A model generated the notes under the pieces. The model was not told the DNA's origin. It ran no database searches and saw nothing but the letters and a program-made list of their open reading frames with translations. The position numbers and the translations under genes were made by a program. A stretch of DNA of 64,000 bases from Squalus acanthias. Lineage: Eukaryota. The stretch spans positions 157,358,001 through 157,422,000 of the forward strand of contig CM059431.1 in NCBI GenBank assembly GCA_030390025.1, written 5' to 3'. Shown here in pieces: positions 1 through 39,637 of this stretch; the first letter of the stretch is position 1; each line of letters opens with the position of its first letter.

Positions 1-312
1 GTAGGTTGCATATCCCATAGACCGGATGAATTTTGCGAGAGCTCGGTGATACGTGAGATAATGCAGGTTGTGTGAGTTTAGAAATTAAGAAAGTGTTTAG
101 TTCGATGTAAAAATTGTGGCAGGGAATGTATTATAAAGGCAGAGAGAGGCAGACATGCTGTGAAGTGCAAAGGAGCAGAGAAATCGAAGCAACGATTTAG
201 AAACGTTCACTACAAGTTTCTCGAGATTCGAGCCACCGGCAATGGATAAAACCAATTAGATGGTTCACTGAATATACAGGGCTCCTTTGATAGAGAATGG
301 ACGGAAACTCAC

Positions 313-510
313 GGCCTTTAATTCCGACAGCTTAGCATTTAAATGTCAGTTAATTTCTTCATCCAATATTAGAAGTATGTCGCTATTACAAGTTTTATCG
401 TTCTCTAGGTTTTCCACTGGATCTATGCTGAGAACGCATGATGGTAGTTCTGCTAGTGATGTCTTATTATATAATTAATTTCGATTCAGCTGGGCTTGAC
501 CCGTACAATC
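313..510 (-). pseudogene. Exon: putative second half of CARD/death-fold domain (two in-frame stops)
   Basis: Acceptor ccccaaattacag|GAT, donor GCC|gtgagt, 198 nt, phase 0-0, matching the phase-0 end of exon 1235-1395. Translation DCTGQAQLNRN*LYNKTSLAELPSCVLSIDPVENLENDKTCNSDILLILDEEIN*HLNAKLSELKA (amphipathic helical pattern). Confidence 0.55.
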
Positions 511-734
511 CTGTAATTTGGGGTAATTGATCAATTGCTAGCACGCCCTCTTATCCGCTTTCAGAAACTGGAGTTAATACAACCCCTGCAGAAATGCGGC
601 CACTGGAATTACTTTAACAGCCGCACGTTTCACAGTGAATTCAAAGAGCTGGTTTTGGACCTGTCCTCCAGGATGTTGCTGGTGGCGGATTCCCCGATGT
701 TAATTCCATTAAATATCAGGGAGAGATGATGTGA

Positions 735-980
735 CTCTCTGTTGTTGGAGATGGTCATTGCCTGGAACTTGAGTTACAAGAATGTTTCTTGTCACATAAC
801 CGGCCAAACCTGGATGTTGTCCAGGTGTAGCTTCATATGGGGATGGACGAATTCATTAACGGAGGAATTGCAAATGAAGCTGAACACTGAATCATCAGTG
901 ACTAGCCCCAATTCTGACCGCATGAGGGATGGCCATTGAAGAAGCAATTAGAGATAGTTGGGTCTCGGACGCTGCCATGA
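735..980 (-). mobile_element. Fragment of CR1/L2-group LINE RT (same family as 41190-43000)
   Basis: ttggagatggtcattgcctgg...ggatgttgtccagg is the reverse complement of the RT region seen at 42100-42300. Confidence 0.65.
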
Positions 981-1234
981 AGCAAACATAGTTAAACCAA
1001 GAGATGCTTTTCACTCATTATTTAACGCATTAATTGAAGATTAAAGAACAAATTAATTTACCAGAGATATATCTCAGAGGAGCACTTAAAATGCTGTTTT
1101 CATTGGAATCGGACTCAATTTCAGAGTCACTATAGATTACTGCTTATATCGTTGGGTTGCACGGAATACAGTTAATCTAACTCTGACTCATGACTCATTT
1201 AACACCATGAGATTCCACCATATATATTGAATAC

Positions 1235-1395
1235 CTCATGATCTGCTTCAGTAAACACTTTTACATCAAAAAGCGACTGACTAACAGTCTCCACGAATTC
1301 TTGAATTGAATGTTCCAGAATCTGACGGTGGCACTCGATAATTCTCCACAGCTGGAAATCCGTGTAGCTCCTCAGCATCAGTAACGTTTTATTAG
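1235..1395 (-). pseudogene. Exon: CARD/death-fold-like domain, first half, resembling the N-terminal domain of chondrichthyan NLRs
   Basis: Acceptor caatacattcag|CT, donor GAG|gtattc, 161 nt, phase 1-0, open: (A)NKTLLMLRSYTDFQLWRIIECHRQILEHSIQEFVETVSQSLFDVKVFTEADHE. The D-F-Q-L-x-x-I-x-x-x-H-R-x-x-L-E-x-x-I-x-E-x-V-E-x-V-S pattern recalls the DxQLxxLTxFYRxRLEQAIEEGVEGVS motif I remember from shark/ray NLRC3/NLRP3-like proteins. Confidence 0.65.
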
Positions 1396-1694
1396 CTGAA
1401 TGTATTGTCAAGGTGTAAATGAGAACATATTAAAATACTGAGCCCGCTATAAAACAAAGAATACTCTGCACCAACTGATATAGCAACAGCGTTTATTAAA
1501 GCCTTTCAAGCAGTGCTACCGCAAGTGGCGCCTCACAGAGGAGGTATTAAGAATTAAAGCTGACTCTTTTTTGGTATAGTTAGGAGGAACGACTCAGTCC
1601 TTGCAACATTCGGAGGCTGGTTAAAGTTAGTAAGCAGTAGAAAGAGGGGGATCCTTAGGAACGGAGTCAGTGGGATTGATATCTTTAACTGGAG

Positions 1695-2435
1695 TGCGGA
1701 GCAGAAAAACCGATACACTAGAAATCACCGCGAAGGAGAGTTGTGTAACAGAGGGGATGCAGAGAAGACTGTAGGGATAAGGTGGGTGGGGCTGTACATT
1801 TATTGTAAATTGAGTAGGATCATTTCACACATGATCAATTTGGGATAAGAAGTGAATGTAAGTCAGTGACCAAGTGGTTTACGGACTTGAGAGTGAATTT
1901 GAATTGAAGCAATAGAGCTGTAGAAAAGTTGAAGTTTAAGACGGGCAAAGCCCAAATGTCGTGTGAGGATTCAAGTCTAAAGCTCACAAAAGCATGGATA
2001 ACGTTCAAGCAAATATTCGTATGGAAGTGCATGTCCAGAAAATAACCTATACCTGTTCCTGGCGGTGATCTGAGACTCCAGGTAAGATTTAATGTCTTGG
2101 AATCAGCAGATGCTTTTGAGCAATTAGACATAGTCGTGACTTTCACATTTGCCTGATGAGCTAATAAATAACATACAGAGACTAATAGTATAAAACACTA
2201 AATGCAACTTCATTCGTGCTTCCATTTTTCCTGCTTTATTTTAAGGAAGACTAAATTGTGAAACATGAACTGAGAAATGGAAATATTGTGAAGCCAACAG
2301 GCAGTCACACTAAACTTTACGGATATCAATACACCGAGTACTGGAAACAACGCTTTTGGAAAATAGATTTCATTATCAATAGAGAAAAAATCACACAAAG
2401 ACAAATGATTTACCTTAGACATGACTGTATCTAGT
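1695..2435. repeat. Direct duplication, copy A (~740 bp), containing a cytoplasmic exon
   Basis: tgcggagcagaaaaaccgatacactaga...gacatgactgtatctagtac recurs co-linearly at 3451-4192. Confidence 0.92.
2053..2152 (-). pseudogene. Cytoplasmic exon, copy A (2-nt deletion relative to reconstructed 102-nt phase 1-1 exon)
   Basis: ttattagctcatcag|GC...GGAACAG|gtatag; encodes ...VKVTTMSNCSKASADSKTLNLTWSLRSPPGT. Confidence 0.5.
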
Positions 2436-3450
2436 ACATTTCCATAATTAAATGTCCACTCAACCTTCTCTGCTCTAAGCAGAACCCAAACAGCTTCTCC
2501 AGTCAATCCACCTAACCAAAGTCCTTCATTCCTGGAACCATTCTTGTAAATCTTTTCTGCACTCTCTCTAAGCCTTCACATTTTTCCTAAAGTGCCATAC
2601 CCTGAATTGGGCACAATACTCCAGTTGAGCTCGAGGCAGTGTTTAATAAAGGTTCATTATAACTTCCTTGATTTTTTACTCAATTCCTCTATTTATAAAG
2701 CACAGTCTCCCGTAAGCGTGTTAACCACTTTCTCAAACAGCCGTGATACATTCAACGATTTGTTCACATATACCCCAAGGTCTCTCTGATCATGCAGCCC
2801 GTTCAGAATTGTACCCTTTAGTTAATATTGCCTCTCCTCGTTCTTCCTCCGTAAATATATCATTTCGCACGTTTCTGCATTAATTTTTTTCTGCCACGTG
2901 TTCGTCCATTCCACCAGCCTGTCTATGTCCTCTTGAAGTCTATCACTTTTCTTCTCACTGTTCACTATACTACCAAGTACTGTGTGAGCTACAAATTTTG
3001 AAATTGTACCCGGTACACCCAAGTCCAAATCATAACTATATATCCAGGAAATCAGTGATCCTAGTACGGACCACAGGGGAACACCTTCCCCCACTTCGAA
3101 AGACAACCGTTCCCCTATACTATCTGTTTATTGTCACTTAGCCAATTTCGTATCGAAGCTGCCACTGTCCATTTTACTCCATGGGTTTCAACTTTGCTGT
3201 CAAGCCTATTAAGTGGCATGTTATCAAACGTCTTGTGGAAGTCCATGTACACCACGTCAACCACATTGGCCTCACCGCACCCTCGCCTCACCCTCTCTGG
3301 TAACGCATCAAAAAAATAAATCAAGTTAGTTAAACAAGATTTGCCTTTGAATAATCCGTGCAGACTTTCTTTAATAAATCCACTCTTTTCCAAGTAACTG
3401 TTAATTTTTTTCCGATTTATCGTTTCGAAATGATTCCCCATTACCGATGT
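2436..3450 (-). mobile_element. Old CR1 LINE ORF2 (RT) fragment, internally deleted
   Basis: ORFs 3115-3486 (KGKSCLTNLI, VDVVYMDFHKTFD) and 2822-3106 (LQEDIDRLVEW) carry CR1 RT motifs. Confidence 0.9.
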
Positions 3451-4192
3451 TGCGGAGCAGAAGAACCGATACACTAGAGACCACAACGGGGAGAAGAGTG
3501 TAACAGAGCGGATGTTAAGAAGACTGTAGGGATAAGCTGGGTGGGGCCGTATATTTGGGTGAGGATGAGTAGGACCATTTCACACATGCTCAATTTGGGA
3601 TACGAATTTAATATAAGTTAGTGAGCAAGTGGTTTACGGATCAAAGGGTGAATTTGAATTTAAGCAATAGAGATATATATAGATTCTAGGTCATGACGGG
3701 CTGGGCCCAAAGGTCGTTTGAGGAATCGAGACTGAAACTCACAAAAGCATAGATAAAGTACCAGCAAATATTAATATAGAAAGGCATGATCAGAAAAATA
3801 ACCAATAATTGTTCCTGACGGTGATCTGAGACTCCAGGTTATATTTAATGTTTGGAATCAGCAGATGCTGTTGAGCAATTAGACATAGTCGTGACTTTCA
3901 CATGTTTGCCTGAAGAGCTAATAAATAACATATATAGATTAATAGTATGAAACACTAAATGCAAATCAATTCGTGCTTCCATTTTTCCTTCTTTATTTTA
4001 AGGAAGACTAAATTGTGAAACAGGAACTGAGAAATGGAAATATTTTGAAGACAACAGGCAGTCACACTAAACTTTACGAATATCAATAAACCGAGTTCAG
4101 GAAACAAAGCTTTGGGATATAGTTTTCATTATCAATAGAAATTAATCACACAAAGACAAATACTTTAGCTTGGACATGACTGTAGCGAGTAC
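3451..4192. repeat. Direct duplication, copy B
   Basis: Co-linear, highly similar to 1695-2435. Confidence 0.92.
3809..3909 (-). pseudogene. Cytoplasmic exon, copy B (1-nt deletion, donor GT lost)
   Basis: agctcttcag|GC AAA CAT GTG AAA GTC ACG ACT (GKHVKVTTMSNCSTASADSK); end reads GGAACAA|ttattg instead of GGAACAG|gtatag. Confidence 0.45.
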
Positions 4193-4280
4193 TGTTCAAC
4201 AATTAAATGTGCCCGAGCATAAAACATCAAAAGGATGCGGCGGGGAGTGTGTTGGAGAAAGTCGTGAGAGGTAGCTCTTT

Positions 4281-5015
4281 GGCTCAAAAATTAGTGCCGC
4301 TACGCGAGAGTACTCACTGCGTACTCTCGCGTATTCTGTCTCCAATTGCCGGTTTTCTGCATGCACTGCGCATGCGCTGAAAACCGGCACTTGGTGAATG
4401 GAAAAGGGGGCGTTTCCTAGCTGAACCGCGTGCGCGCTACAGGCTGCGTGCATGCTGTGCACTTAGTGGTTTCAACGCGCAGTTAAGTACGGATGATTTT
4501 ACACATAAAAAAAGGAGGAGTAAGACCCACTTTTAACAGGGTAAGTAGTGAATTAAGTATTATTTTGAATTTTTTTAACAGGTATATCTTTTTTAGAGAC
4601 TTTAAAGACAGGTAAGTTTATTTTTATAACTTTTTAAAAGATTTTAAATTTTTTCAAAAATTTATTTTTTTATTTAAAATGGTTAATTTATTTAACTATA
4701 CTTATTTTATTAATGTGATGGTTTTTTTAATTTAATTGAGGTTTAGCTGTTCTTTTGGGGGTATAGATTCATAGCTTTCACAGCACTTATGTGAAAGTTA
4801 TGAATGGAAGATGGTGTGCTGCCATTGGCTCTAACTGAGTCACGTGATCTCACAGCTCACTCGAATCACTACGCCTGTGGGATACGCAAGCCCAGCACAG
4901 CAGCTGCCCACAACATCAAGTTCGTGCGAGCTGGAACTGAAAAAGCCAACGCGCATTGAGAGAACGCGGGGAAGCCTTACCCTCGCACGAAGGCTTCCTC
5001 ACGAATTTTTGGGCC
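4281..5015 (+). mobile_element. MITE, putative non-autonomous PIF/Harbinger element
   Basis: TIRs ggctcaaaaattagtg / cacgaatttttgggcc; internal palindromes (gcgagagtac...gtactctcgc; gccggttttc...gaaaaccggc) and AT-rich core shared with 12158, 16146 and 32779 copies. Confidence 0.8.
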
Positions 5016-5262
5016 AATACCTCATCAACAACAACAAAAACAACACAATTAACGTGATATAAAGTACACCAAGGCGCCTCAAGGAAGTTTTGATGAGGCA
5101 TGAATACACACATCCTAGCCGAAGAAAGAGATAGTAAGGGTTCAGGAAGATTTACATTAATTGTAGTCAAAAAAGGGAGTTTTAAGCAGACGCTTAAGGG
5201 ATTAACCGGTCTGCAGAGGCGGAGGTGTTTATGGAGGGAATAACAGGGTGCGAGGCATGTAC

Positions 5263-5310
5263 CTCTTTCCCCATCGGAAATGTAACTCTCTTCTTCACTA
5301 TTTGTATTTC
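5263..5310 (-). pseudogene. Short cytoplasmic exon or 3' part of TM exon: (G)NTNSEEESYISDGER
   Basis: gctgcag|GA...AGAG|gtacat, 48 nt, phase 1-1, in frame with TM exon. The intervening 45 nt is also open and short for an intron, so 5263-5490 may be one exon. Confidence 0.45.
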
Positions 5311-5355
5311 CTGCAGCATTAATGCCCGGAGAAGAACACGCATTGTTTTCCTTAC

Positions 5356-5490
5356 CCAGCGGTTTGTCATCATTTCTGAGATCATGTGTCTGCTTTATCG
5401 AAGAATCAGGCCCAAAGTCTCTTAATAGTCCCAGCAGTATTACAACGAGTAAACTGTATCGTACGAACATTATTACAGTATCGTCAATCA
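5356..5490 (-). pseudogene. Transmembrane exon with intramembrane Arg
   Basis: ttctttaatttacag|TG...CTGG|gtaagg, 135 nt, phase 1-1, open: (V)IDDTVIMFVRYSLLVVILLGLLRDFGPDSSIKQTHDLRNDDKPL; hydrophobic run VIMFVRYSLLVVILLGLL. Confidence 0.65.
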
Positions 5491-6451
5491 CTGTAAATTA
5501 AAGAACAACTGTTGAGCTGATGTTACTCAATGATTCATTGACAATCTAAACAATCTAAAGCAATTATAAAAGCTCCAGACGCATTAACTTCCGTTCATCG
5601 TTTGCGTACCGCATTGTTCAGTTTACTTTCTGATATCCTCTGCTGTTTTCACAGTTTTTCTTTGCCAGGTAATCGGAATCTTGTGCATTTCTACACTTTG
5701 CCTAAATAACGGATTTATAAGGTGTCGCCTAGAGGTTTATCAGAGAAGAATGCGAACTGTGGCTGGGTTGACTCTGCACTTATTTTCATCTATTGTTCAA
5801 AAGATGGATTATTCTCACACAACAATAAATAATCTGTAATATATACGAACGAATACTTAATCGGATATCGCCATTTAGTTCTCCTTTTGGGTTCTGACTC
5901 GTTTGAGATGTTCCTGTTATCATTGCAATCGAAAAAATTCACTGCTGCAGCTGCTAGCTTCTGCTGCAAGATTGGTCTGCTTAGAGGCAGGAGTTGCATT
6001 TTCCCAAGTTATTTCCCTACAAGAGTTGGATGTAGTTTTAGAGATATGCGCTTGCTCCTGATTCCCCACCAAATACCCACTAATTCTATTTAACTTGAAT
6101 TATATAACTGATGTTAGAAATTTATGAATCATTGATTAAAATACTGAATGAACCGGAAGCGGTTATGAAATCCGATATTAAGTTGAAGTCTCTTCAGTGA
6201 CACTTGAAGTCTTTTAAATGTATAATTAGCAATCGTTCGTGCTTTAATTGTACATTGTTATTTTGTGACTAAATATACTATTATTTTTAAATCCGCGGCT
6301 TTACCGGCATTTTTACGAACTGTTCAGACGGCTACACCTTGTTCATTCGATTTCCCTACTACTTATGAATCAATAGCCGTGTTTCAAATATACGAATTGA
6401 AACGTTATCACAACAATCAACGCCGATCCTGTCAACAGGAATCAAGCTTAC

Positions 6452-6509
6452 CATAAAGTAACGGGATTAGTCTAATGGAGGGGTAGGGGAATACTTTTAC
6501 TCCAAATGA
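6452..6509 (-). pseudogene. Candidate small exon (stalk region)
   Basis: Strong acceptor ctcttctttaccttccag| and donor TG|gtaagc; 58 nt; phase not reconcilable without an indel. Confidence 0.35.
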
Positions 6510-6611
6510 CTGGAAGGTAAAGAAGAGCTTTAGAATACGTTGCAGATAAACACTCTACAATGAATAATAAATGTTGCAGATATGAATCAGATTTAAATTA
6601 CTTTGCCGTAC

Positions 6612-6648
6612 CTGGTACTTATTGAAATTTCTCATTGTTACTTATTGC
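6612..6648 (-). pseudogene. Candidate small exon (stalk region)
   Basis: Acceptor ctttctttattctgcttcag| and donor CAG|gtacgg; 37 nt; contains stops. Confidence 0.3.
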
Positions 6649-7336
6649 CTGAAGCAGAATAAAGAAAGTAGCAACCTTTGCGATCAGAGACCACATTAGG
6701 CTTCTACCGCTGGCGACGTTATTCAGTCACTCCGTTCATGCTTCAGCACCTTTTTCACCACTCAGGTGTTCTGCAATAAACAACGCTCCTCATTCTTCCG
6801 TTTTTATTTTAAGCCCAACTAACAGCGTATCTACGCCATCTTCTTTCATACTTCGCATTACTTCCATACGCTACTTCCTGCAGGTTTCTGCCCCGTCATC
6901 TTTTTTCCTTTTTCTCATTCCATGCTTCACTTCCTTCTTATAATTCACATTGCTGTTGCTTTTCCCTCCTTTCACCACATCGGCACCGATGCCTTCTCTT
7001 GAAGTTCCGCACTTAACCGGGATCCTTCTGTGATTTATCTGAATGTAATTTGTCAACTACTAAAAGTAATCCCTCCCCTTTATTGACAGGAATGTTGCAG
7101 GGGCCGTCTACTGCGGAGGCCGAATCAATATCCAACGCCTAACAAATTTCTACGCAATCAGTTCCCCTTAGCGCCAAGATCAAGCAGGAGGCTAAAACTG
7201 AAAGAAAATCAATTTAACATCTAAATCAATGACCAAGAGGGTTACCAAGTTGGATTGTGAACTTATCCAGCCTAACCCTGTCCGCAGCATGAGACGATAT
7301 ACACTGGAAATTTCTTCCCACGTTTCCGCTAATACG

Positions 7337-7762
7337 GGCAACACGGTGGCATAGTGGTTAGCACTGCTGCCTCACAGCGCCAGAGACCCGGGTTCGAATC
7401 TGACCTCGGGTGACTGTCTGTGTGGAGTTTACGCATTCTCCCCGTGTCTGCGTGGCTTTCCTCCGGGTGCTCCGGTTTTCTCCCACAGTCCAAAAATGTG
7501 CGGGTTAAGTTGATTTGGCTATGATAAATTGACCCTTAGTGTTAATGGGGGATTAAATATGTGGGGTTATGGGGATAGGATGGGATATGTTAGGGGGAAT
7601 TAAATACATGGGGTTACGGGGGTCGGGTGGGATATGTGTACTGTGGGGATTAAAGCAGGGACAGGGTACTGGATTTGGATGATCAGCCATGATCGTATTG
7701 AATGGTGGAGCAGGCTCGACGGGCCGAATGGCCTACTCCTGCTCCTAGATTCTATGTTTCTA
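7337..7762 (+). mobile_element. tRNA-derived V-SINE (HE1-like) with CR1-derived 3' tail
   Basis: A box tggcatagtgg, B box ggttcgaatc, V-domain tgtgtggagttt..cattctccccgtgtctgcgtgg..tttcctccgggtgctccggttt, tail gggccgaatggcctactcctgctcct as in local CR1 3' ends. Confidence 0.9.
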
Positions 7763-7848
7763 TAATTTGTTCAAACAGGAATTGGATTTGATCACGTACC
7801 CACTTGACTGTGGCCTTCTAATAGAGAGTGGACTGTGCCAGCACCCAC

Positions 7849-8165
7849 TTGGAGTAATTTCAGCATTTCCCGATAGTGTTAGACGGAAGATAGTGGCTCG
7901 GAGATAAACCTCTCGATATCGCATATCGTCCATTTTACACTGGCGCCAAAAGCTTAACTTGACCCCAAAAGTTATGGATGAATTCTTCCCGTTATCAGAA
8001 TTCACAGGGGATGTTGAAAATGCGTCCTTAGAGATTTTGCCATGTATCAATATGCAGCTTAGTAGAATTTCAAAGCTATGTTTATAATGTAGCATTCACG
8101 GAGAGGCTCTGTTATTCCTCGGCCTCGGTTTACAGATTCTCTAACCTGGTGTTTTTGTTCTGGAA
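7849..8165 (-). pseudogene. Ig-like (C1/C2-type) exon, 1-nt frameshift
   Basis: tgtttgtacctacag|TT...ACTCCAA|gtgggt; 317 nt (one short of a phase 1-1 multiple of three). Joined translation (V)PEQKHQVRESVNRGRGITEPLRECYIINI/SFEILLSCILIHGKISKDAFSTSPVNSDNGKNSSITFGVKLSFWRQCKMDDMRYREVYLRATIFRLTLSGNAEITP shows beta-strand spacing typical of Ig C domains. Confidence 0.5.
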
Positions 8166-8593
8166 CTGTAGGTACAAACATAGTAAACGGCAGAATTTTA
8201 TTAGTACCTTCATTTCATGCATGTGGCGAAATAGCAGGGGAGTGGAACTAATTGGCTAGCTCTTCCTGTCCGCCAGCACAGGAAATATTGTTCGAAAGGA
8301 GGCCTCCGATATTAAGTTTCTATCCATCGATGTTTTACCGTCATTTTTGTAAAAGGAGCAGGCGGTTCAGAACCTTGATCACGTTCCGCCATTTAATGAG
8401 ACAATTGCTTATCTGTATCTTAACTCCATCAAATCACCATTTGTCCGTTTCCATTAATATGATTCACTAGCCAAACTCTATCGAACTCATGTTTAAAATT
8501 AGGATGTGTCCATTTGCAGCACCAAATTTCTGATTGGACTATTGGAGGACAAGATAATATTTCTGATTTGTCAACTTGGAGGACAAGACTCAC

Positions 8594-8695
8594 CCGGCAG
8601 TTTGTCTGCAATGTGTAATTAGATCCTGCCTGCCTGAGTAATCAATATCTTTGTAATATGTATTTGATGCATTCATTTTGACAGCCAGGCTCCAG
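8594..8695 (-). pseudogene. 3' part of B7-type IgC exon (separated from its 5' part by TE insertions)
   Basis: Ends at consensus donor CCGG|gtgagt; reads SLAVKMNASNTYY.. then LHIADKLP in a shifted frame. With 10553-10733 it totals ~280 nt, a normal Ig exon size. Confidence 0.35.
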
Positions 8696-8999
8696 ATTTC
8701 ACAGTGCTAACACTACTGCTTTCAGAGAACAGACAGTGCTCACCCTCCCAGGTTACGAGCTAGCAAGGGGTGAGGACATGGATGGAATTCAACATGAGGA
8801 TGAACTTTTTGAAATCAAGGTGTTGATGGACCATGAGCCCATTAATGTACCCGCCATTTTGGGGGGCGCGGCTCCTTTAAGGGCTACGCGACTCATTCAA
8901 ATTGTTGCATGAGCGGTCTAATCCTGTCCCAACACTGGGAGAACGAGATCCATCTTCTCATCTGGATCACGTTCTGGCTCTCATCCCCGCCCTTTAGAA

Positions 9000-10552
9000 C
9001 TGGATCTCATTAATCCAACTCCTCACTGATCTCACAGTGCTCCCCACAACAACCTATCCAAGTTAGTCCCACTTCCCTGTTCTTTCCCCATAACCCTGTT
9101 TTATTCCTTGAAGTATTTATCCAATTACATTTTGGAAGTTCATGTGAAATCTGATTCTACCACCCTTTCAGGTAATGCGTTCCAGATCAAAACAACAATC
9201 TTTGTGAAATAACTTCTCCTCATTAACCCTCTAATTATTATTATTTTTTAATCTGTTCACTCTGGTTACCTACGCTTCTTCCACTGTAACAGCTTCTCCT
9301 TATCTAATCTATGAAAATCATTCATGATTTTGAACACCCCTATCAAATGTCCACTCAACCTCCTCTGCTCCAAGGAGATCAATCTCAGCTTCTCCATTCT
9401 CTGCAAATTAATGTTTCCCTCATCCCTGGTTCCATTCAAGTAAATCGCTTCTGCACCCCCTCTAAAAACTTTGCAGCTTTCCTAAAGTGTGTTGCCCAGA
9501 ATTGAACAAAATATTGAAGTTGAGGCGTAACCAATGTTTCATAAAGATTTAACATAACTTCCTTGCTTTTGTACTCCGCGTCTCTGTTAATATAGTCAAG
9601 GATACCATGTGCATTTCTAGCAGCCTTCTGAACTTACTCTGCCATAATCAATTATTTACGTACATACGACCCCTAGGTCTATCTTTTTCTGCAGCCTCTT
9701 TGAAATGGTACCATATAGTTTATTTTGTCTCTCCTCAACCGTCCTACCAAAATATCTCACTTCACAATTCTATGCGTGAAATTTAATCTGCCATGTTTCG
9801 GCCAATCCAAAATATGTTGCTCTCCTCTGGGAGTCTATTAATATCCTTCACATTGTTTACTACATTTAGGAGTTACGTGTAATCTGCTATCTATGTAATT
9901 ATATCCTGTAGACCCAATTCCAGTTCATTAACATATATTAAAATTGCAGTGGTCCTAATACAGATCCCTTGGAAACAAGGTTGCATAGATCCATGCAGTA
10001 TGAAAAACTACCGTTCACTGCGATTTTGTTTTCCGTTCGTTATCCAATTTTGAATCGAAGCATCCAGTTTCCCTTTAATAAAATGGGTTTATTTTTTGTA
10101 ACAAATCTATGATGTGGAACTTGATAAAATGCCTTTTCAAAATTAACATTCACAACATCAACCGCACTAGCCTCATCAACCCTCGCCATTATTTGAGCAA
10201 AAAAACAAATCAAGATATTGAAACACAATTTTCTTTTAACAAGTCCTTTCTAACTTTCATTTATCAGCCCGTAACTTTCGGAGAGTCAATTATTTTTCCC
10301 CTGATTATTGTCTCTAAAAGTTTCACACCGGCCACTTCAGGTTGACTTGCCTGTATTGCTAGATATATCCCTCTCCACTGTTTTGAACATTTGTGTTACA
10401 TTTGTGTAACCACCCGTCTGGCACCGCCTCTTTATCTAAGGAGTATGGTAAGATTCTGTCCAGAGCCTCCTCAATTTACACCCTTACTTTCTTCAGTGAT
10501 CTAGGAAACATTGCCTCTGGACGAGGTGACTGCTCTATTTTGAGTACTGCCA
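9000..10552 (-). mobile_element. Old CR1 LINE (RT and 3' end) inserted inside the IgC exon
   Basis: ORF 10040-10228 (VDEASAVDVVNVNFEKAF) and reverse-complement CR1 3' region at 9050-9600. Confidence 0.85.
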
Positions 10553-10733
10553 AAGAAACCTTCTGCTGATCACCAGGTACACCCCATTATTTATAACCTT
10601 ACAACTCGGAACTTCCTTCAGCCCTTCGTCACTTTCAAGCCAATAATTAAACTCTAGTACAATGGGAAATCTATAAGCCTCAGGTAAACGTTAGAATTCG
10701 ACATCACTCAGTGATCATACGGCTTACTGTAAT
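10553..10733 (-). pseudogene. 5' part of B7/butyrophilin-type IgC exon
   Basis: Acceptor aattttccgcttttgatgtttag|AT, phase 1: (D)YSKP/MITE*CRILTFT*GL../FPIVLEFNYWLESDEGLKEVPSCKVINNGVYLVISRRF. YSKP start, FP, W and NGVYLVIS match B7-family IgC patterns; stops and frameshifts present. Confidence 0.5.
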
Positions 10734-11987
10734 CTAAACATCAAAAGCGGAAAATTATAGAGCAAAAGAGTTTAACAAAATGACGGACCACAGCCCACAA
10801 TTGTAATCATTTGCATCCAGTCCAGTATGGTGCTGACCAATCATACAACTAAAGTAATAACATAAGAACGTAAAATATAGGAGCAGGAGTAGGCCATTTG
10901 GCCCCTCGAGACTGCTCCGCCATTCAATAAGGTCGTGGCTGATCTGATCCTGGCCTCAACTCCACATTCCCGCCCGCTCCCCATAAACCTTGACTCCCGT
11001 GTAGCTCAAATATCTGTCTTTTCCGTCTTGAATATATTCAATGACTCTGCCTCCACAGCTCTCTGGTGCAGAGAATTCCAAAGATTCACGACCGTCTGAG
11101 AGAAGAAGTTCCTCCTCATCTCCGTTTTATATAGGCGACCCCTTATTCTGAAACTGTGTCCCCTAGTTCTAGAGTTCCCCAAAAGGGGAAACATCCTCTC
11201 TGCATCAAACCTTACAAGCCCCCTCAGACTCTTATGTGTTTCAATAAGATCACCTCTCTTTCTTCTAAACTCCAATGAGTATAGGCACAACCTCCTCAAC
11301 CTTTCTTCATAAGACAACACCTTTATCTCAGGAATCAACCTCGTGAACCTTCTCTGAACTTCGTCCAATGCAAGTATAGCCCTCCTTAAATAAAGAGACC
11401 AAAAACTGCACGCATTACTCCAGATGTGGTCTCCCCAGCGCCCTGTACAGTTATAGCAAGACTTCCCTACTTTTACACTCCATCCCCCTTCCATTTAGGT
11501 CCAACATTGCATTTGCCTTCCTAATTATTGCTGTAACTGCATGCTAACTTTATGTGTTTCATGTACGAGGACCCCCAGATTCCTCTGTACCGCAGCATTT
11601 TGTAGTCTTTCTCCATTGAAATAATAATTTGCTTTTATATTCTCCCTACCAAAGTGGATAACCTCACATTTTCCCACATTGTACTCCAGCTGCCAAAATG
11701 TTGCCCACTCACATAACCCATCCATAACCCTTTGCAGACACTTTGTGTCCTCCTCACAACTTGCTTTCCCGCCTATCTTTGTATCATCAGCAAATTTGGC
11801 TACTGTATATTCGGTCCCTTCATCCAAGTCCTAAATATAGATTATAAATAGCTGAGGCCCAGGCACTGATCCCTGTGACACCCCACTAGTTATAGTTTGC
11901 CAACCTGAAAATGACCCATTTATCCCGACTCTCCGTTTTCTGTTAATTAGCCAACACTCTATGCATCCTAAAGTATTACCACCATCC

Positions 11988-13812
11988 CTGTGAGCTGTAT
12001 AGAGAACTGGTTGGCAGACAGGAAGCAAAGAGTAGGAATAAACGGTTCTTTTTCCGCATGGCAGGCAGTGACTAGTGGGGTACCGCAGGGATCGGTGCTA
12101 GGATCCCAGCTATTCACAATATATATTAATGATCTAGACGAGGGAACTAGATGTAATGGGCCAGAAATTCGGCTCTTGTCGGGTGAGTACGCGCTATGTA
12201 CTCACCCGTAAGGCCAACTGAAGTGCCGGTTTCCTGCTTGCACTGCGCATGCGAGGCAAACCGGAACTTCCGTTGCCCTGAAGGGAGGGGTTCAGAGGTG
12301 AAACGCGTGCGTGGGAGAGGCTGCACGCAGGCAGCGAACTTCGCTGTTTTTTTCAGGTTTATCCGGGAGGGTAAGTATGGAAAAGCTGCACTTTTAAATA
12401 GAAGGCGCAAATCCTGTTTTTTACAAGGTAAGTGGTTAATTAATTACAATTTAAACATTTTTTCAACAGGTTTACCTTTTTTAGATACTTTAAAGAAAGG
12501 AAGTTTATTTTTGCACCCTTAAAAAGTATAATAATTTTTTTCAAAAATTTATATTTTTGTGTAATTAGTTAATTTAAGAAACTTATAGTTATTTTAAAAA
12601 TGTCAGTAAAAAAAAAACATATATGAAGTTTATGTGTGCTTTTGGTGCAGATCTCTATTCATGGATTTGACAGGTCTTCCTGCCAAATCTATGAATGAAA
12701 ATGCCCTGTTAGGATTGGGTCTCCATGGCCCACGTGATCACAGGGGACGCTTCGAACTAACTGCGCCCCTGGGATGCGCAAGCACTGCACGCCGGCAGCT
12801 GCAGGAGGGCCAGGACCCGAAGTCCTCGTGTGCCCAAAGCACAACAGCAGATGCGGTAGGCATGTATGCGCGTGATTCCTGCACCCGCAGGAAGCCAGAA
12901 AGCCGAATTTCCGACCCAATATCTCTAAGTTTGCAGACGTGAGCGTGTGTGCTGTGAGGAGGATGCAGAGAAACTCCAGTATGATTTGAACAGGTTGTGT
13001 GATTGGGCAGATGCATGGCAGATGCAGTATAATGTGGATAAATGCGAGGTTATCCACTTTGCTGGCAAAAACAGGAAGACAGATTATTATCTGAACCGCA
13101 ATAGATTGGGAAAAGGGGAAGTGTAACGAGATCTGGGAGTCCATGTGCACCAGTCGCTGAAGGTAAGCATGCAGGTGCAGCAGTCGGTTAAGAAGGCAAA
13201 TGGTATGTTGGCCTTCATAGCGAGAGGATACGAGTACAGGAGCAAGGATGTCTTGTTGTAGTTGTACAAGGCTTTGGTGAGACCACACTTTGAGTATTGT
13301 GTGCAGTGTTGGTCGGCTTATCTGAGGAAGGATGTTCCTGGGATGGCAGGAATGACGTATGAACAGAGATTTAGTCGATTAGGCTTATATTCGCTGGAGT
13401 TTAGAAGAATGAGAGGGGATCTCATTGAAACTTATAAAATTCTAACAGGACTAGGCAGACTAGTTGCAGGAAGGGTGTTCCCGATGGCGGGGAAGTCCAG
13501 AACCAGAGGACACAGTCTAAGGATAAGGGGTAAGCCATTTAGGACTGAGATGAGGTGGAATTTCTTCACCCAGAGAGTGATGAACCTGTGGAATTCCCTG
13601 CCACAGAAGGCAGTTGAGGCCAATTCATTAAATATAATCAAGAAGGACATACATATATTTCTTAAAGTTAAAGGGATCAAGCGATATTGGGAGAAAGCAG
13701 GGACAGGGTACTGAATTTGGATGATCAGCCATGATCTCATTAAATGGCGGAGCAGGCTCGAGGGGCCGAATGGCCTACTCCTGCTCCTATCTTCTATGCT
13801 TCTATTCTTCTG
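11988..13812 (+). mobile_element. 5'-truncated CR1 LINE nested in opposite orientation, itself carrying a MITE
   Basis: ORF 11990 ([10 protein letters not shown]) and ORF 13262-13714; near-identical to 53750-54850. Confidence 0.93.
12158..12917 (+). mobile_element. MITE (PIF/Harbinger-type), 3-bp TSD AAT
   Basis: TIRs gggccagaaattcggct / agccgaatttccgaccc flanked by aat...aat; homologous CR1 at ~53900 (actagatgtaatatctctaag) shows the empty site with one AAT. Confidence 0.9.
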
Positions 13813-14439
13813 TTCTTATCTGGTGCAGTAACCTTTTATGTGGCACCTGATCGAATGCCTTCTGGAGATCCAAATACACTACATCTACTGTTTCCCCTTT
13901 TTCCATCCTGCTCGTGACATCCTCAAAGAACTCTAGTCAATTTGTCAAACACGGTTTCCCTTTCATAAAACCATGTTGACTGCCTCATTGTATTATGATT
14001 TTCTAAATGTCCTGCTATGTCTTCCTTAGTGATGGATTCCAGCATTTTTCCAATGACAGATCTTATACTAACTGGCCTGTAATTTCCTGCTCTCTGTCTC
14101 CCTCCTTTCTTGAATAAGGGAGTTACATTTGTGGTTCTCCAATCCGTTGGGACCTTTCTAGAATCCAGGGAATTTTGGTAGATTACAACCAATGCATCCA
14201 CTATCTCTGCAGCCACTTATTTTAAGACCCAAGAATGCAGGCCATCGGGTCCAATGGACTTGTTAGCCGTTAGTCCTATTCGTTTTCCTAGTACTTCTTT
14301 TTATCTACTGATAGTGATTGGTTTAAGTTCCTTCATCCCTATAACTCCTTGATTATCAATTATTATTGGGATGCTTTTATTGTTTTCCAGCGTGAAGACC
14401 GATAAAAAAATATTTGTTCAAATTCTCTGCCATTTCCCT

Positions 14440-15110
14440 GGAGCATGAGACTCTATGAACGTTTATATCCTGAAATAAGTGTAACAACAGCACGCGATTT
14501 CAAGAGAGAAGAGTGAAGTGCGTGACAGTGTCTTCAGCCAAAATGGCCAAGTGGATGATTCTATTGGGAATCATCGAGATTTTGCCTCACTCATACAGTC
14601 ATTACCTGCAATTTCAGTTCCATCCACTTGATGTTAAGAAGCAGAAGAATGCACAGAACACAGTGAATACTTTTGGTTTTGACTACATACCACCATTAGC
14701 TGTAGAAGGGCTCAACTTCATAACTAGCTCTCCCCACCCCAAGCCAAGCTAATCTAGTGCATCTGACATGGCATCTGATGGACAATATACAAGGATGACC
14801 AGCTGTGTCCTAACCAAAAATTCAACAACAGACTGTATCCTGCCAATTACTGACGTATCAACTGCCTTATAATTATCAGCAAAGCGATGGATGGACTAAT
14901 CAATAGAGCCATCAAACAACATTCACTCATCAATAACCTGCTTTCCGATATTCAATTCGGGTGGTGCCTGAAATGATCGGTTCTGGATTTTTTCACTGAT
15001 GCAAGATTTGAATGCCGGAGAACAGGAGACCGTACCTCATCTCGACAACAAAGGCTGCATTTCACCCGGTTTTGTGTCCTGATTTCAATGAGATTGAAAC
15101 GGCAAAACAC
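14440..15110 (+). mobile_element. Very old CR1/L2-group LINE fragment, duplicated with the locus
   Basis: gtcttcagccaaaatggccaagtggatgatt resembles 41347 (atcttcagccagaagtgccgagtggatgtt); paralogous to 44560-44793 plus 47398-47830 and to 50400-50640. Confidence 0.6.
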
Positions 15111-15459
15111 CCGTAGCTTGAAACTTTGGTACTCGGTGAAAGTTAGTAGTTGCGTTTTGTGCTCAAAAGTCTCTAACTCTAAATTTTTCGTCGTAACGTT
15201 GTCATAGAAGAGAAATTATTTAAATACTATTTACAGCCGCAGAACGTCAGCGGCTGTGTATGTATTTGGAAGTTTTACTCCGTTAATGACACTGCTTCCA
15301 GTAAACTGATTTCTGAAAAAAGCAATCCTTTCTTACCCCATCCCCTATGTATAATATAAAGTTTCACTATCATTGAAGATCGACAGAATTCAACGGCGAT
15401 ATGTCCATTCCCGTAAATTAGAACCCAGTAATTGTGCTCAGTATATTTCGGGTCCTTAC

Positions 15460-15830
15460 CTTGTGCTGCGTATCCTGATTCTGGTTCCAGGGAGTCTGGC
15501 TAAATTAGCGTTGTGCGTTCTGCAGGATAATGAACACACCCTGGGTAAAGCTCAGTTGCACACAAAGTCATAAATCCGACCTTCAGTCTGAGCAGTACTA
15601 TCCCTGCCCGCCTTTTCTCTGGAGCAAGTTTCGATCGGAATGAAACCCAGTCTCATTAGGATTAAAGTGTTCTGATAAATTACGAATATTTTCATTATAA
15701 GTCATAAATTATGTCTGTGATAACAATGGTTACTCTGCGATTCTGATTACTTTGCAGGGAAATTGGTTTATCTATCTGGATTCAGTTTCGTGTCCTCGAT
15801 TCGACTTTATTTCTCACCATTTAAACTGTT
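15460..15830 (-). pseudogene. IgV-like exon, copy 1 (acceptor removed by CR1 insertion)
   Basis: Consensus donor CAAG|gtaagg; clear nucleotide paralog of 33717-34115 and 48188-48582; phase-1 end joins the (D)YSKP exon. Confidence 0.5.
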
Positions 15831-15831
15831 A

Positions 15832-18800
15832 TTGAGAGATTACTGAGACGTGGCTACAGCAATAGTCATGACTGGGAATTAACCATTGCCTTGCGCAACA
15901 TATATAGAAAAGATAGAGAGGGAAAAGTGGAGGTGGAGTACCTGTACTTATTGGAGATACATTAATGGCAGTAGAAAAAGTGACGTAGCCATCAGTAAGA
16001 GATAAAATGAATTCACTTGGATAGAGATAAAATATAATAAAGGATCAGTCACATTAACAGTGGTAGCCTACAGACCACCTAATAGTGGAAGGGAGAAGGT
16101 GAAAGAAATATGCAAATACATTAGGGAAATGAGTGAAAAGATAGAGGGGCAGAAATTCGGCTGTTGTCCGGTGAGGACGCACTGTGTACTCACCCGTAGG
16201 TACAACGAAAGTGCCGGTTTCTTGCATGTACTGCGCATGCGCGGGAAATTGGCACTTCCGTCCCCCTGAAGGAAGGACTTCAGAGGTCGAACGCGCACGC
16301 CAGAGGGCCAGCGCGTTCGCCTCGCACTTCGGTTTTTTTTTACAGGTATCTCCGTGAAGGTAAGCACGGAGAAGATACACTTTTAAAAAGGAGGCGCAAG
16401 GCCTTTTTTATCAAGGTAAGTGTTGATTTTATTAAAAATTAAAAAAACATTTCACAGATTTATCTTTTTTAATGACTTTAAAGAAATGTAAGTTTAGTTT
16501 TAGCCCCGTTAAAAAATGTAATTAATTTATTCAAAAATTTAAATTTTTGTTTATAATAGTTAATGAATGTAATTTATAGTTATTTTTAAAATGTTATGGT
16601 TTTTTTAATTTATTTGTAGTTTTAGGGATGTTTTGGGGCCGATCTGTATTCATAGATTTGACAGGTCTTCATGTCAAATCTATGAATGAAAGATGGTCTG
16701 CTGCCATTGTCTATCCATGGCCCACGTGATCCAAGGGGACGCATCGCACTGACTACGCCCCTGGCATAAACAAGTACTGCACGCCGGCAGTTGGAGGAGG
16801 CCCAGGAACCGAAGTCCCCGTGGGCCCAGAGGTCAACGGCAGGCATGGTAGATAGGTGCGTGCGCGATCCTTGCACCCGCGGGAAGCCAGGGAGCCGAAT
16901 TTCTGGCCCAGAATAATAATCATGGGGGATTTCAACTACACGGAAATTAATGGGCCAGATGAGGGAGATAAATAGGATAAGTGAATGGAACCCCGACAAT
17001 GTGTATAGGATTCCATTAAAACCATTATGTAAGAAGTCCAACAAGGGAGGATTCGCTACTGGAATGAACTTGGGCAAATAGGATAAGTAAAAGTAAGGGA
17101 ACATCGGGACAATCGTGGACATAACATAATATATTTTAAGATAATAATTGAGAAGGTCATAAGCAATAGAATGAAGAAAAGCTGATTTTGAGGGGCTGAG
17201 CTTGGAAAATAAAATGGACAACAATATTGGCAAACAAAAATGTAGTACATTAATGGGAAGCATTTAAATGTCGTTCAGCACAATCTAGGAAATATATATT
17301 CCTCTAAAAAGCAAGAACCAAAAAACAGTAATGATACACCATGGATGAATAATGATGAAGGGTACAATTGAGGTTAAGGAAAGAACCATACTCTAATTAC
17401 ATGGACAGCAGTAGAAAGCATGACAAGCGAAATATGAAAAAAAGGGATAAATCTAAAAACTATTAGAATGACAAAGAGGAACTTTCAAACTATTGTATAA
17501 CGGAACATATAAAAGCAAAATATTCTCCAGGCATGTAAATGAAAAAAAAGGAATGTTGGGATGGCAATAGAGCCATCAAAGGCTGGACAGGTGAAACTCA
17601 AATGCAGCGATAGCGAAATGGCAGAAATATTAAATCATTACTTTGCGTCAGTAATTACAGGGAGACATAATCAAGAGAAGAGATAGATGAGGTACGATTA
17701 CCCATATTGAGTAATTCGTTAGGAAAAGGTGTAGTGCCAAAGGACGGGTGGAGAGCTAACGTTATACCTCTATTTAAGAAGGGAGTTAGAACATGTACAG
17801 GGAACTATAGACAAATCAGCTTCACATTGGTGGCAGGAAATATAATGGAATCCATGTTAAAATGAAAATAGAAAAACATCTTTAAAGCAAATATAAATAC
17901 TCAGCATAGATTTCTAAAGGGAAATTCTTGCTTGGCCAATCTCATGAAATATTTCGAAAAGGTAACAGAGAGCGTAGAAAGGGGTAAGTCAGTACATGTA
18001 ATATATCTAGCTTTCCAAAAGGCCTTCGTTAAGGAACCACGTAATAAAATAATGAATAATGTTAGAGCATGTGGAGTCAGGGGAGTTGTAGCTCAATTTA
18101 TAGCTAGCTGGCTGCAAGATAGAAAGCAGGCAATGGGGTAAAAGTTAAATATTCAGCGTGGCAGAAAGTGGGAAGTCGGACCCGACAGACCAGTGCTGAC
18201 ACCACGGTTTTCAAAATTTATATTGGCGATTTGGACTTTGGAATCTAAAACAACATTTCCTAATTTGGAAACAACAAATTGGTGGGTGGGGATAGTCAAA
18301 GCTCAGGAGCAGTGCAATAAATTATAAGAAGACATTAATAAACTTGCAGACTGGGCATTTAATTGGCAAATTAATTACAACAGAAAAAGTGTGAGGTATT
18401 AAATGCTGGAAAGCAAAATAAGGTGGTCACATATTACTTGGGAAATACAATCTGAACGCGGCAGAGCTGCAAAGGGATCTGGGAATGAAAATACACAAAT
18501 CATTTAAAAGTAACGACCCAGGTTAATAATGCCTTAAAAATCAAACTAAGTATTAGGGGTTATTTCCAGAGGGATAGAATTGTAGAGAAGTTATGTTAAA
18601 CTTGTATTGAACCGCAGTTATACCACACTTGTGTACTGTGCACAAATCTGGTCGCCATTTTATAAAAAAAGATATAGAGGCACATGAGGGGGACCAAAGA
18701 GATTTACAAGTATGATACCAGATATACATATCAGGAAAGTATGAACAGGCTGGGTTTCTTTTCTATTGAAACGAGAAGGCGGAGGGATAACCTAATTGAG

Positions 18801-20617: not shown

Positions 20618-22896
20618 GGTTATACATAGATACATAGATACATAGAAGATAGGAGCAGGAGTAGGCCATCCGGCCCTTCGAGCCTGCTCCGCCATTTAAT
20701 GAGATCATGGCTGATCCTCCAATTCAGTATCCCGTCCCCGCCTTCTCTCCGTAACCCTTAACCCCTTTTGCCTGTAGAAATACATCTAATTCCCTCTTAA
20801 ATATATTTAATGAGCTGGCGTACACTGCCCTCTGTGGCAATGAGTTCCACAGGTTCACCACCCTCTGAGTGAAGAAATTCCCCCTCATTTCTGTCCTAAA
20901 TGGTTTAGCCCTTATCCTTAAATTATGTCCTCTAGTTCTGTTCTCACCCGCCAAGGGAAACATTCCTTCTGCATCTAGTCTGTATGGACCTGTCAGAATT
21001 TTATACACTTCTATGAGGTCCCCTCTCAATCTTCTAAACTCCAGTGTGTACATCCCTAAACTACATAGTCTCTCCTCATAGGTCAATCCCGCCATTCCTG
21101 GTATCAGCCTGGTGAATCGCCGCTGCACCCCCTCCATGGCAAGAACATCTTTCCTCAGATGAGGCGACCAAAACTGTACACAGTACTCGAGGTGTGGTCT
21201 CACCAGTGCCCTGTACAGCTGCAGCAAGGTATCCCTGTTCCTGTATTCCAACCCTTTTGCTATGAAGGCCAGCATACCGTTTGCCTTCTTGATCGCCTGT
21301 TGCACCTGCATGCTCGCCTTCAGTGACTGGTGTACAAGAACACCCAGGTCTCTCTGTACTTCCCCCTCTCCCAATTTATTGCCATTTAAATAATAATTTG
21401 CCCTCCCGTTCCTGCACCCAAGGTGGATAACTTCGCACTTGTCCACATTATAGTGCATCTGCCATTTATCCGCCCAATCACCCAGTCTGTCCAAATCGCT
21501 CTGGAGCTTCCTGGTCTCCTCCTTTGAGCCCACCCCCCCTCCTAGTTTAGTGTCGTCTGCAAATTTGGAAATGCTGCATCCGACTCCCTGATCCAGGTCA
21601 TTAATGTAAATTGTGAACAGCTGGGGACCCAGGACAGATCCCTGTGGTACCCCACTTGTTACTGCCTGCCATTCAGAAAATGAGCCGTTTATTCCAACTC
21701 TCTGTTTTCTATCTGACAGCCAGTTCTCTATCCACGTCAATACTTTCCCCTTTATCCCATGAGCTTCAATTTTCCCTGCTAATCTTTTATGTGGGACCTT
21801 ATCGAAGGCCTTTTGGAAGTCCAGGTACACCACATCTACTGGCTCTCCCCCATCTATTTTACCAGTTACTCCCTCAAAAAATTCCAATAGATTAGTCAAG
21901 CACGATTTACCCTTTGTAAATCCATGTTGACTCTGTCCTATCCTGTCCCCATTTGCTAAGTGCTCCGCTATTTCATCCTTAATGATGGACTCCAGCATTT
22001 TGCCCACAACTGATGTAAGGCTTACAGGTCTGTAATTACCTGCTTTTTCCCTACCCCCCTTTTTGAATAGTGGGGTAACGTTAGCTACCCTCCAATCCAT
22101 GGGCACTGTTCCCGAGTCTAATGAATTCTGAAAAATCATACTTAGTGCATCCGCTATCTCTAGGGCCACCTCCTTCAGCACCCTAGGATGCATGTTATCA
22201 GGCCCTGGGGATTTGTCCGCCTTCAATCCCTTTAGCTTCCTTAACACCATATCCTTAGAGATATTGACTTGCGTCAGTTCCTCCTTTGCAAATGTCCCTA
22301 TTTTTCCCAATATCCCAGGGAGGTTTTTTGTGTCTTCCTTCGTAAAGACTGACCCAAAGTATGCATTTAGTTGGTCTGCCATTTCCTTATTTCCCGTTAT
22401 ATATTCCCCCGTATCTGACTGCAATGGGCCAACTTTGGTTTTCACCAGTCTTTTCCTCTTGATATACTTATAAAAGCTTTTGGAGTTAGTTTTTATATTT
22501 TCCGCCAGCTTGCTTTCGTAAGCTATTTTGCCCCTCTTGATTAAGCCCTTTGTCCTCCTTTGCTCTATCTTAAACTGTTCCCAATCTTCCGCTCTGGCGC
22601 TTTTTTTGGCTATTTTATACGCCCTATCTTTGGATTTTATGCTGTCTCTAATTTCCCCTGTTATCCACGGTTGAGTCACCTTTTTAGATTTCCTTTTATG
22701 CCAGATTGGTATAAACAATTTTTGCAATTTTGTCATTCTATCTTTAAATGCTTGCCATTGTTTATCTACCTCCAGTCCTCCCAGGAACGTTGTCCAATCA
22801 GACCTACTCAGTTCCCGTCTAATGGCATCATAATTCCCCTTGTTTAAATTCAGGACCTTAGTATCTGAGTCAATTTCTTCGCTCTCCATTTCGAGT
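20618..22896 (-). mobile_element. Young 5'-truncated CR1 LINE with uninterrupted 721-aa ORF2 portion (complete RT domain)
   Basis: ORF 20724-22889: [45 protein letters not shown]; (atacatag)n tail at 20622-20645; tcatagagtcata on both flanks. Confidence 0.97.
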
Positions 22897-38619: not shown

Positions 38620-39115
38620 ACACAATCTACAGCCGGCACGATATAGAAGTGCATAATGCGCAGGCATAACAATTAAGTTACATTGGTAGCAAGCGCACAA
38701 TGTACAGGAGTACAATGTATGGGCAGACAATGTTTAGGTTTAAATGCACAGGTGTACAATCCAATGACACAACCTGTAAAGGCGAAATGTACAAATGTGC
38801 ACAATGTATAAGAGCACAATGATCGGGTGCATAAGGCACAGTCACACAAAATAAACTTGCACAATATACAGGCAAACAATGTACATGTGCATAATGTAAA
38901 AGCACAGAATGTACAGGTGTACAATGTTCAAGCGCACAATGTACAGGCAAAAAATGTACAAGCGCATAATTTACAAGCACAGAATGTACAGGTGTATAAT
39001 ATTCAAGCGCACAATGTAGAGTCAAACAATGTACAAGTGCAGAAGGTACAAGTGAAGAATGTACAGGCGCACAATGTTCAAGCGCAGAATGTAGAGGCGC
39101 CGAAAGTACAGCAAC
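38620..39115 (+). repeat. 15-bp minisatellite (gcacaatgtacaggc-like)
   Basis: Tandem units give the pentapeptide-repeat ORF HNVQA/QNVQV at 38827-39216. Confidence 0.9.
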
Positions 39116-39637
39116 AAATAGTTACATATATAAACAAATGCAGACAAGATGATAGAAATCATAGAGAATCCCACTTTCTCTCAATCGCAATCAAAGTTAT
39201 TGGCCCATTGAGTTGACCAGAGATTCGATAATGATTACTAATTTCGTCACTTCTGGCACATGGAAATGAATACATTGAATTACATGGAAGTTGCTACACA
39301 GAAACAGTCTACTCGATCCCCTAAAAACACCCAAGTACTTGCCAATAATGAGGCACACTTGATCAATAAGGAGGTAAGGATCAAACTTTATCTAAAGAAA
39401 AAGGTCCACACTAAGTACATAGACAAAAATAAGAGGTTGGAAAGGAAAGAAAAAGGGTTAGGATAAAAGTTTATAAAATATTAAGAAGCCAAAAACGAAT
39501 TACAAAATAAAAATTACTAAAGAATATAAAAATGAGGCGAGACATAAATATCAAAATGGAAATTATGATAAGGATTAGCCATAAAAGGATGCACAAAATA
39601 AATTTGCAAGTAATGACAATGAAATGGAAGAAATATT

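Follow-up and report, generated by a model that had tools for sequence, protein, structure and literature searches.

The question raised by this locus is whether two short segments close to one end of a 64,000-nt stretch of the Squalus acanthias genome (the window) are the two exons of a single CARD in a shark NLR gene and, if so, what has become of the gene to which they belong. A preliminary description of this DNA had taken them for a two-exon CARD/death-fold module of the elasmobranch NLR type, an identification that is upheld by the homologies of the first segment to shark proteins and by a test on the ends of the second. The CARD exons, the introns, and an upstream exon of hydrophobic character all lie on the minus strand.

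The first of the CARD exons (exon 1; 1235..1395) comprises 161 nt, runs from phase 1 to phase 0 between the acceptor ...tacattcag and the donor GAG/gtattc and, as had been stated earlier with the strand unspecified, is fully open, with 53 whole codons and no stop. This openness is ordinary in itself, 811 of 2,535 AG..GT stretches of 155-167 nt on the minus strand being open in some frame, and all four splice sites of the two CARD exons reach only the 75th-90th percentile of AG/GT sites on a generic matrix; it is therefore homology, and not ORF or splice-site features, that lifts the two exons above chance.

Similarity to elasmobranch NLR proteins, which had been proposed as a check together with the intron position and the predicted fold, was found at 44-54% identity, with E-values as low as 5e-24. 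An exhaustive phmmer search of 1.84 billion proteins with exon 1 (threshold E <= 0.001) returned four proteins, three of which are shark models, namely GCB66031.1 from a catshark (44% identity, E 5e-24), XP_078087540.1 from Mustelus asterias (54%, E 6e-21), and XP_078390056.1 from the basking shark (44%, E 6e-8). The fourth match (E 3e-10) is a low-complexity tandem repeat and was discarded together with the members of its cluster. A profile search, with scoring confined to the best 8,000 candidates, adds XP_072354261.1, and the meaningful homologues come exclusively from sharks. Exon 1 accounts for all ten tblastn matches at E < 0.001, eight of which stop exactly at 1235, where the intron had been placed. 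A profile of the first half of the CARD gives 67 bits on exon 1 and 2.5 bits at the next best place, so that no second CARD exon was detected with it elsewhere in the 64-kb window, and the mean identity of exon 1 to eight homologue units is 0.42 vs 0.40 among those units themselves. Used alone, exon 1 gave no match in a word-index search at longer or near lengths and none against PDB sequences, while a search of the ESM Atlas failed (best 0.88, recognition 1518).

The Pfam CARD model likewise gave no row with the window's own exon 1 and exon 2 peptides at E <= 10 or <= 1; these are half-domains, and the full homologous units of GCB66031.1 and XP_078087540.1 also yielded no Pfam CARD row. The connection to Pfam runs through the profile homologue, since exon 1 matches residues 620-674 of XP_072354261.1 with 47% identity and the stretch that Pfam calls CARD in that protein (641-711) overlaps them. 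Folded as a single sequence, exon 1 gives one long helix, which is uninformative. Judged by its homologies, exon 1 is a genuine CARD exon, coding for the first half of a CARD-like unit of the shark type.

The shark homologues, all of which are automatic gene models, hold two to five such units in tandem, each of about 115-120 residues. Pfam recognizes a NACHT domain in XP_078087540.1 (E 6e-30) and in XP_072354261.1 (E 3e-31), and the latter also passes the CARD model (PF00619; 40.4 bits vs a cut-off of 23.9) and carries NOD2_WH and HD2. The NACHT-proximal unit of the catshark model, predicted with AlphaFold from a five-row alignment (pLDDT 89, pTM 0.80), consists of seven helices, and a Foldseek search with it returned only CARD entries among its top 10, none of them at E <= 0.001. 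VIA-align superimposed the same unit on the CARDs of SP100 (Z 12.3, rmsd 1.9, 96 aligned), ARC (Z 12.1, rmsd 1.4, 80 aligned), and NLRC4 (Z 11.9, rmsd 2.1, 87 aligned). A Z of 12 is not decisive alone for a helical bundle; entries bearing a CARD nevertheless make up nearly all of the 30 best rows, in agreement with Pfam. More widely, the CARDs of ARC/NOL3 (4uz0), NLRC4 (6mks), NOD1 (4e9m, 4jqw), and SP100 (9tnz) share the predicted fold of the shark unit with Z 11.5-12.3, but their sequence identity to it is only 8-21%, with no match at the sequence level, and the shark unit differs in an extra helix at its N-terminus (model residues 4-12) that lies outside most of the structural matches. The family unit is thus predicted to fold as a CARD, as the preliminary description had implied, the prediction having been made on a homologue and not on the window's own copy. 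On the catshark model, exon 1 spans about three and a half of the seven helices, counted from the first, and the fourth helix is the one interrupted by the exon junction; the intron within the CARD is in phase 0 and at the family position, the introns of the homologues being deduced from the breaks of their alignments at 1235.

Among the closest relatives is XP_078087540.1 (Mustelus asterias, RefSeq, 1,186 aa), which is named 'NACHT, LRR and PYD domains-containing protein 3-like' and in which a hydrophobic segment precedes the CARD-like units, as in the window. Its alignment to the window ends at the intron position, and a terminal Val precedes its junction after the second exon, as here; it differs in having three intact tandem units and a NACHT domain, where the window has one broken unit and no NACHT in view. 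On the structural comparisons, the 'PYD' of its name is an automatic label, the unit being predicted to fold nearer to CARDs. XP_072354261.1 (Scyliorhinus torazame, uncharacterized, 1,405 aa; fragment GCB66031.1) combines a membrane-type exon, one CARD unit, and NACHT, and the window's upstream exon resembles its membrane exon, while exon 1 is 47% identical to its last unit. In contrast to the window, where no other CARD exon was found in the 62 kb upstream, this protein has four extra CARD units before the membrane segment, and the second half of its CARD is intact, whereas that of the window is broken. With four CARDs before the hydrophobic segment and one CARD with NACHT-LRR after it, the model would place CARDs on both sides of a membrane, and the annotation pipeline may have merged two genes in it. 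The basking shark protein XP_078390056.1 (LOC144671995, Cetorhinus maximus, 342 aa) has CARD-like units that are 44-52% identical to exon 1, with a Pfam CARD match at E 8.5e-5, but, unlike in the window, its hydrophobic segment follows the CARDs and the model holds no NACHT.

The second segment is less easily placed. In its earlier delimitation (510..313) it measures 198 nt, is preceded by AG, is read in phase 0, and ends in GCC/gtgagt; in the register of the family it extends to 309 (309..510; 202 nt, phase 0 to phase 1). It contains, as had been reported, exactly two in-frame stops, a TAA at 477-475 (the 12th codon) and a TGA at 348-346 (the 55th codon), and at most two stops are expected in 66 random codons with P = 0.27. 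The segment is about 10 codons longer than the 57 of the homologues and is without the three invariant residues of the second half (R31, W34, and Q41), there being no Trp in frame. Its middle scores like background, which 165 of 300 background windows equal, and its mean identity to the eight homologue units is 0.19 vs 0.34 among those units. It is, consequent on the two stops and the absence of the conserved second-half core, not a complete, uninterrupted CARD, and the peptide of ~120 aa proposed in the preliminary description does not survive, the first stop coming after 64 residues and the middle of the exon being unlike the family.

Comparisons over the whole length of the segment found no significant similarity. 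No match was obtained in a profile search or, at better than E 2.2, with BLASTP; a local frameshift-aware alignment scored 14.3 vs 15.7 +/- 2.3 (43 of 60 shuffles as good); end-to-end alignment was equalled by 17 of 150 shuffles and 12 of 150 background windows; and six settings of alignment to single homologues left 8-38 of 60 shuffles as good. The global score against the eight homologue units is at most 5.5, that of all 28 pairs of homologues at least 40. A start at 520 in another frame was also considered and rejected, there being no AG at that position and no preference for it in the frameshift-aware alignments.

It is the two splice-anchored ends that speak for a decayed exon. With 12 codons taken from each, the segment ranks first among 29,668 AG..GT pairs (150-215 nt, both strands) in a test that was designed after the sequence and the alignment had been inspected, and rank 2 or better is not attained by any of 300 column-permuted profiles; leaving out each homologue in turn gives ranks 7, 1, and 11. 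Taken separately, against the first and last 16 columns of the family, respectively, the acceptor at 510 ranks 213 of 8,324 and the donor at 313 ranks 15 of 6,804. Longer ends weaken the result, 13 other pairs being as good at 16 codons and 41 at 20 codons, of which a single one remains at each length if a fair donor is also required.

These data bear on an alternative in which 510-313 is intron that resembles the family by chance; the true second exon would then be situated past the window edge, in a gene that may be unbroken. The wrong length, the missing invariant residues, and the lack of whole-exon similarity would all be explained in this way, and a stretch so nearly open is not rare, since 150 of the 385 AG..GT stretches of 100-229 nt within 1-1234 have two stops or fewer. 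Against it, both ends rank first across the window, which permuted profiles never achieve, and the register of the family is kept both by the closing Val codon and by the GT in phase 1 that follows it. We accordingly regard a chance resemblance as very unlikely, and the identification of the 510-313 segment as the second CARD exon (exon 2), based on the comparison of sequence ends, as highly probable.

The position at which this exon ends depends on the choice between two overlapping donors (303..312), of which GTGAGT starts at 312 in phase 0 and the weak GTTTCC starts at 308 in phase 1. The pair 510..309, with the exon end 4 nt further on, ties with 510..313 for rank 1 in the test described above. 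An end at 309 puts Val last, as in the Mustelus unit, and has a phase-1 GT in the family register. Two models of the catshark locus have an identical exon end that is followed by G in GCB66031.1 and by V in XP_072354261.1, and such a choice between Gly and Val, made by the next exon, points to a phase-1 family junction beginning with G. Of the preliminary claim that the exon is in phase 0 and ends on gtgagt, the phase-0 start and the presence of the GTGAGT therefore stand, while the family junction is in phase 1, with the GT after 309, and the gtgagt after 313 is, from the alignment, probably not the ancestral exon boundary. The junction base is G in the family and A here, a change that would at once complete GTGAGT 4 nt upstream and weaken the in-register donor, and the GTGAGT was likely created by this G-to-A substitution as a by-product. 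With the donor after 309, the cassette comprises 161 + 202 = 363 nt and has phase 1 at both ends, i.e. it is symmetric, a symmetry which the donor after 313 breaks. A phase-symmetric CARD cassette is one that can be duplicated, lost, or skipped singly with no shift of frame.

Upstream of the cassette lies an open exon of 228 nt (5263..5490, phase 1 to phase 1) that encodes a hydrophobic, membrane-type segment (Kyte-Doolittle 19-mer mean 2.4) with an acidic tail and that joins exon 1 in frame to give 129 codons with no stop. In both XP_078087540.1 and XP_072354261.1 a hydrophobic segment likewise stands before the CARD or CARDs adjoining NACHT. When it was compared with the exon before the last CARD of XP_072354261.1, 2 of 500 shuffles were as good (BLASTP E 0.09); against the hydrophobic segment of XP_078390056.1, 92 of 500 were, which is not significant. 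The homology of the membrane exon is thus suggested by one of two comparisons, and its insertion into a membrane is a prediction. Further upstream, 5857-5923 (minus strand) is an ATG-initiated open stretch of 67 nt with a phase-1 gtattc donor that fits the membrane exon; it is a candidate first coding exon with no homology support.

Immunoglobulin V or C exons were also looked for upstream, and 61 open pieces and 16 read-through frames gave no match to an Ig family or structure in Pfam or the PDB. An AG/GT-bounded stretch at 15460-15825 (minus strand; 366 nt, phase 1-1) has a strong donor and nine stops in its splice frame, and what we take by eye for V-like strand motifs in it is accompanied by no Pfam or PDB Ig match; a weak resemblance to the helix end of MHC class I alpha-1 in another frame (E 0.11) was treated as chance. 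Two other AG-preceded, non-repeat stretches on the minus strand, 7020-7200 and 7912-8165, could be further decayed exons and have no library match.

The surroundings are rich in repeats, 62% of the 64,000-nt window matching itself, and its long ORFs are presumably LINE reverse-transcriptase remnants. The intron between the two CARD exons (511..1234, 724 nt) holds an old repeat fragment at 668-980, and the one between the membrane exon and exon 1 (1396..5262, 3,867 nt) holds repeat fragments and a 760-bp direct duplication (1695-2455 and 3451-4210, 85% identity), the two copies of which are separated by a LINE-like fragment at about 2447-3450. Among the ORFs that we assign to retroelements, those at 20724-22904 (minus), 45394-47190 (minus), and 58350-61367 (plus) are long and nearly intact, with 726, 598, and 695 + 309 aa, respectively; by their motifs we would label two of these elements as LINE-type and one as Penelope-like. 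Another repeat, not of LINE type, is A-rich at its centre and palindromic at its ends; its three copies (4300-4910, 12150-12950, and 16150-16900) are 69-89% alike in parts and very deep in all runs, and it is probably a non-autonomous DNA element. A low-complexity repeat at 38678-39216 is open on both strands, with a recurring period of seven residues. An Rfam search of positions 1-17,000 gave no match. The NACHT, LRR, and linker parts of XP_078087540.1 and XP_072354261.1 have no match in the six frames of the window (best E 0.49); going by the homologues, NACHT and the exons downstream of it would lie below window position 1.

Sequencing reads point to several copies of this region. In one DNA run, contigs of 97% identity cover the surroundings of both exons, 14 contigs lie over position 1516, and contigs of 85-88% lie over upstream stretches; such stacking indicates that the region is multi-copy, the summed depth not being equal to a copy number. 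Three runs guessed to be RNA, from two studies with two organism labels, have one contig each on 1234-1403 (records of 1,211, 1,202, and 307 nt) at 82%, with 31 differences in 170 positions and no gap. On either side these contigs continue into different sequence, the pattern expected of a spliced paralogue, and their stopping at 1234 lends independent support to the boundaries of exon 1; they appear to derive from an expressed, spliced paralogue and not from a transcript of the window's copy. In all three runs the count of 31 differences is identical on exon 1 and the contig ends exactly 119 nt past this exon, which suggests one conserved expressed paralogue with a branch point inside its second exon. 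At 80% identity the paralogue contigs have no match on 313-510 or on the membrane exon, and no RNA run was listed for this locus; no weight is given to either blank.

The consequences of the stops for the copy in the window can be followed from the reading frame. If exon 1 is spliced to exon 2, translation ends after 11 codons of the latter; if the intron is retained, a stop follows 11 codons past exon 1; and a direct join of exon 1 to a phase-1 exon would throw the reading out of frame. The stop in exon 2, which falls within the bundle of helices and ahead of another exon junction, would leave an unfolded half-domain, and the mRNA that bears it would likely be a target of nonsense-mediated decay. 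It has to be noted that the damage is uneven, exon 1 and the membrane exon being open and exon 1 conserved, with exon 2 far more diverged, and that this asymmetry is not well explained by uniform neutral decay.

The asymmetry, together with two open upstream exons, is what would be expected if the stop were in use, i.e. if the gene made a short membrane-tethered protein with a half-CARD that serves as a decoy or regulator, exon 1 having been kept and exon 2 released from selection. Such a product is, however, hard to reconcile with the junction lying within a helix of the seven-helix model, since half a CARD should then not fold, and, with two stops in all, finding both in exon 2 is no surprise (about 0.11 by exon length), so that we give this idea very little credence. 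We think equally little of the notion that the stops reflect errors in the assembly or a null allele, exon 2 being open, if divergent, in other individuals. A second sample does have a DNA contig over 104-642, with 17 differences and one gap, but there are two independent stops of the substitution type in addition to the lost invariant residues. Long-read errors are usually indels, which counts against an error of assembly.

To reach NACHT with the frame preserved, splicing would have to pass over the entire cassette. A gene that is alive in this way would join its membrane exon to NACHT or to cassettes further on and would carry fewer CARDs or none. The open, phase 1-1 membrane exon, the phase 1-1 cassette obtained with the donor after 309, the weakness of the cassette's splice sites on the generic matrix, and the three tandem units of XP_078087540.1, of which one could be dispensable, are all in accord with skipping. 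It requires, on the other hand, that both exons be lost, the intact exon 1 included, the start exon and the downstream exon are not established, and the 64 kb hold no other CARD exon; skipping is for these reasons considered unlikely. Its most extreme form, a living membrane-anchored shark NLR whose CARD has been turned off by exon decay and whose membrane exon is spliced straight to NACHT-LRR, is more doubtful still. If true, it would be a CARD-less membrane-tethered sensor or decoy, and frame-safe gain and loss of cassettes would tune the number of CARDs, from zero to many, across the cluster.

The explanation that we prefer, and hold to be probable, is that the two exons form one CARD cassette of a shark NLR, the second of them broken by stops, and that they likely belong to a duplicate, now in decay, of a TM-CARD-NACHT-LRR gene with a membrane anchor; its NACHT exon would lie beyond the window. 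With similar assurance, the cassette can be described as a dead or dying one from a membrane-anchored NLR, in a cluster of several copies that evolves by birth and death. In NLRC4 and NOD1, the NACHT domain oligomerizes and the CARDs cluster. The intact relatives, which would have the membrane segment, the CARD or CARDs, NACHT, and LRR in this order, would by analogy with these two recruit a CARD-bearing adaptor or caspase, probably at the membrane.

In the whale shark, an NLRP-related NLR family is described as expanded and subject to birth-death turnover (Tan et al. 2021, PMC8455134), and the window resembles that case in being a setting of lineage-expanded shark NLRs in which broken copies are expected. 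It differs in that membrane anchors and two-exon CARD cassettes are not mentioned in the available part of that account. No paper describing TM-CARD-NACHT proteins in sharks was found in the literature searched, which lies largely outside the subscription journals. The architecture exists in databases as automatic models, and the gene is likely not of a new kind.

As it stands, the locus matters little, being another broken copy in a shark NLR family for which database models already exist. Within the protein libraries searched, the subfamily of this copy numbers just four relatives, and a paralogue of it is apparently expressed. The interesting part is the prospect of a vertebrate NLR that has a membrane anchor ahead of its CARD and NACHT, for the study of which the intact copies would be better suited.
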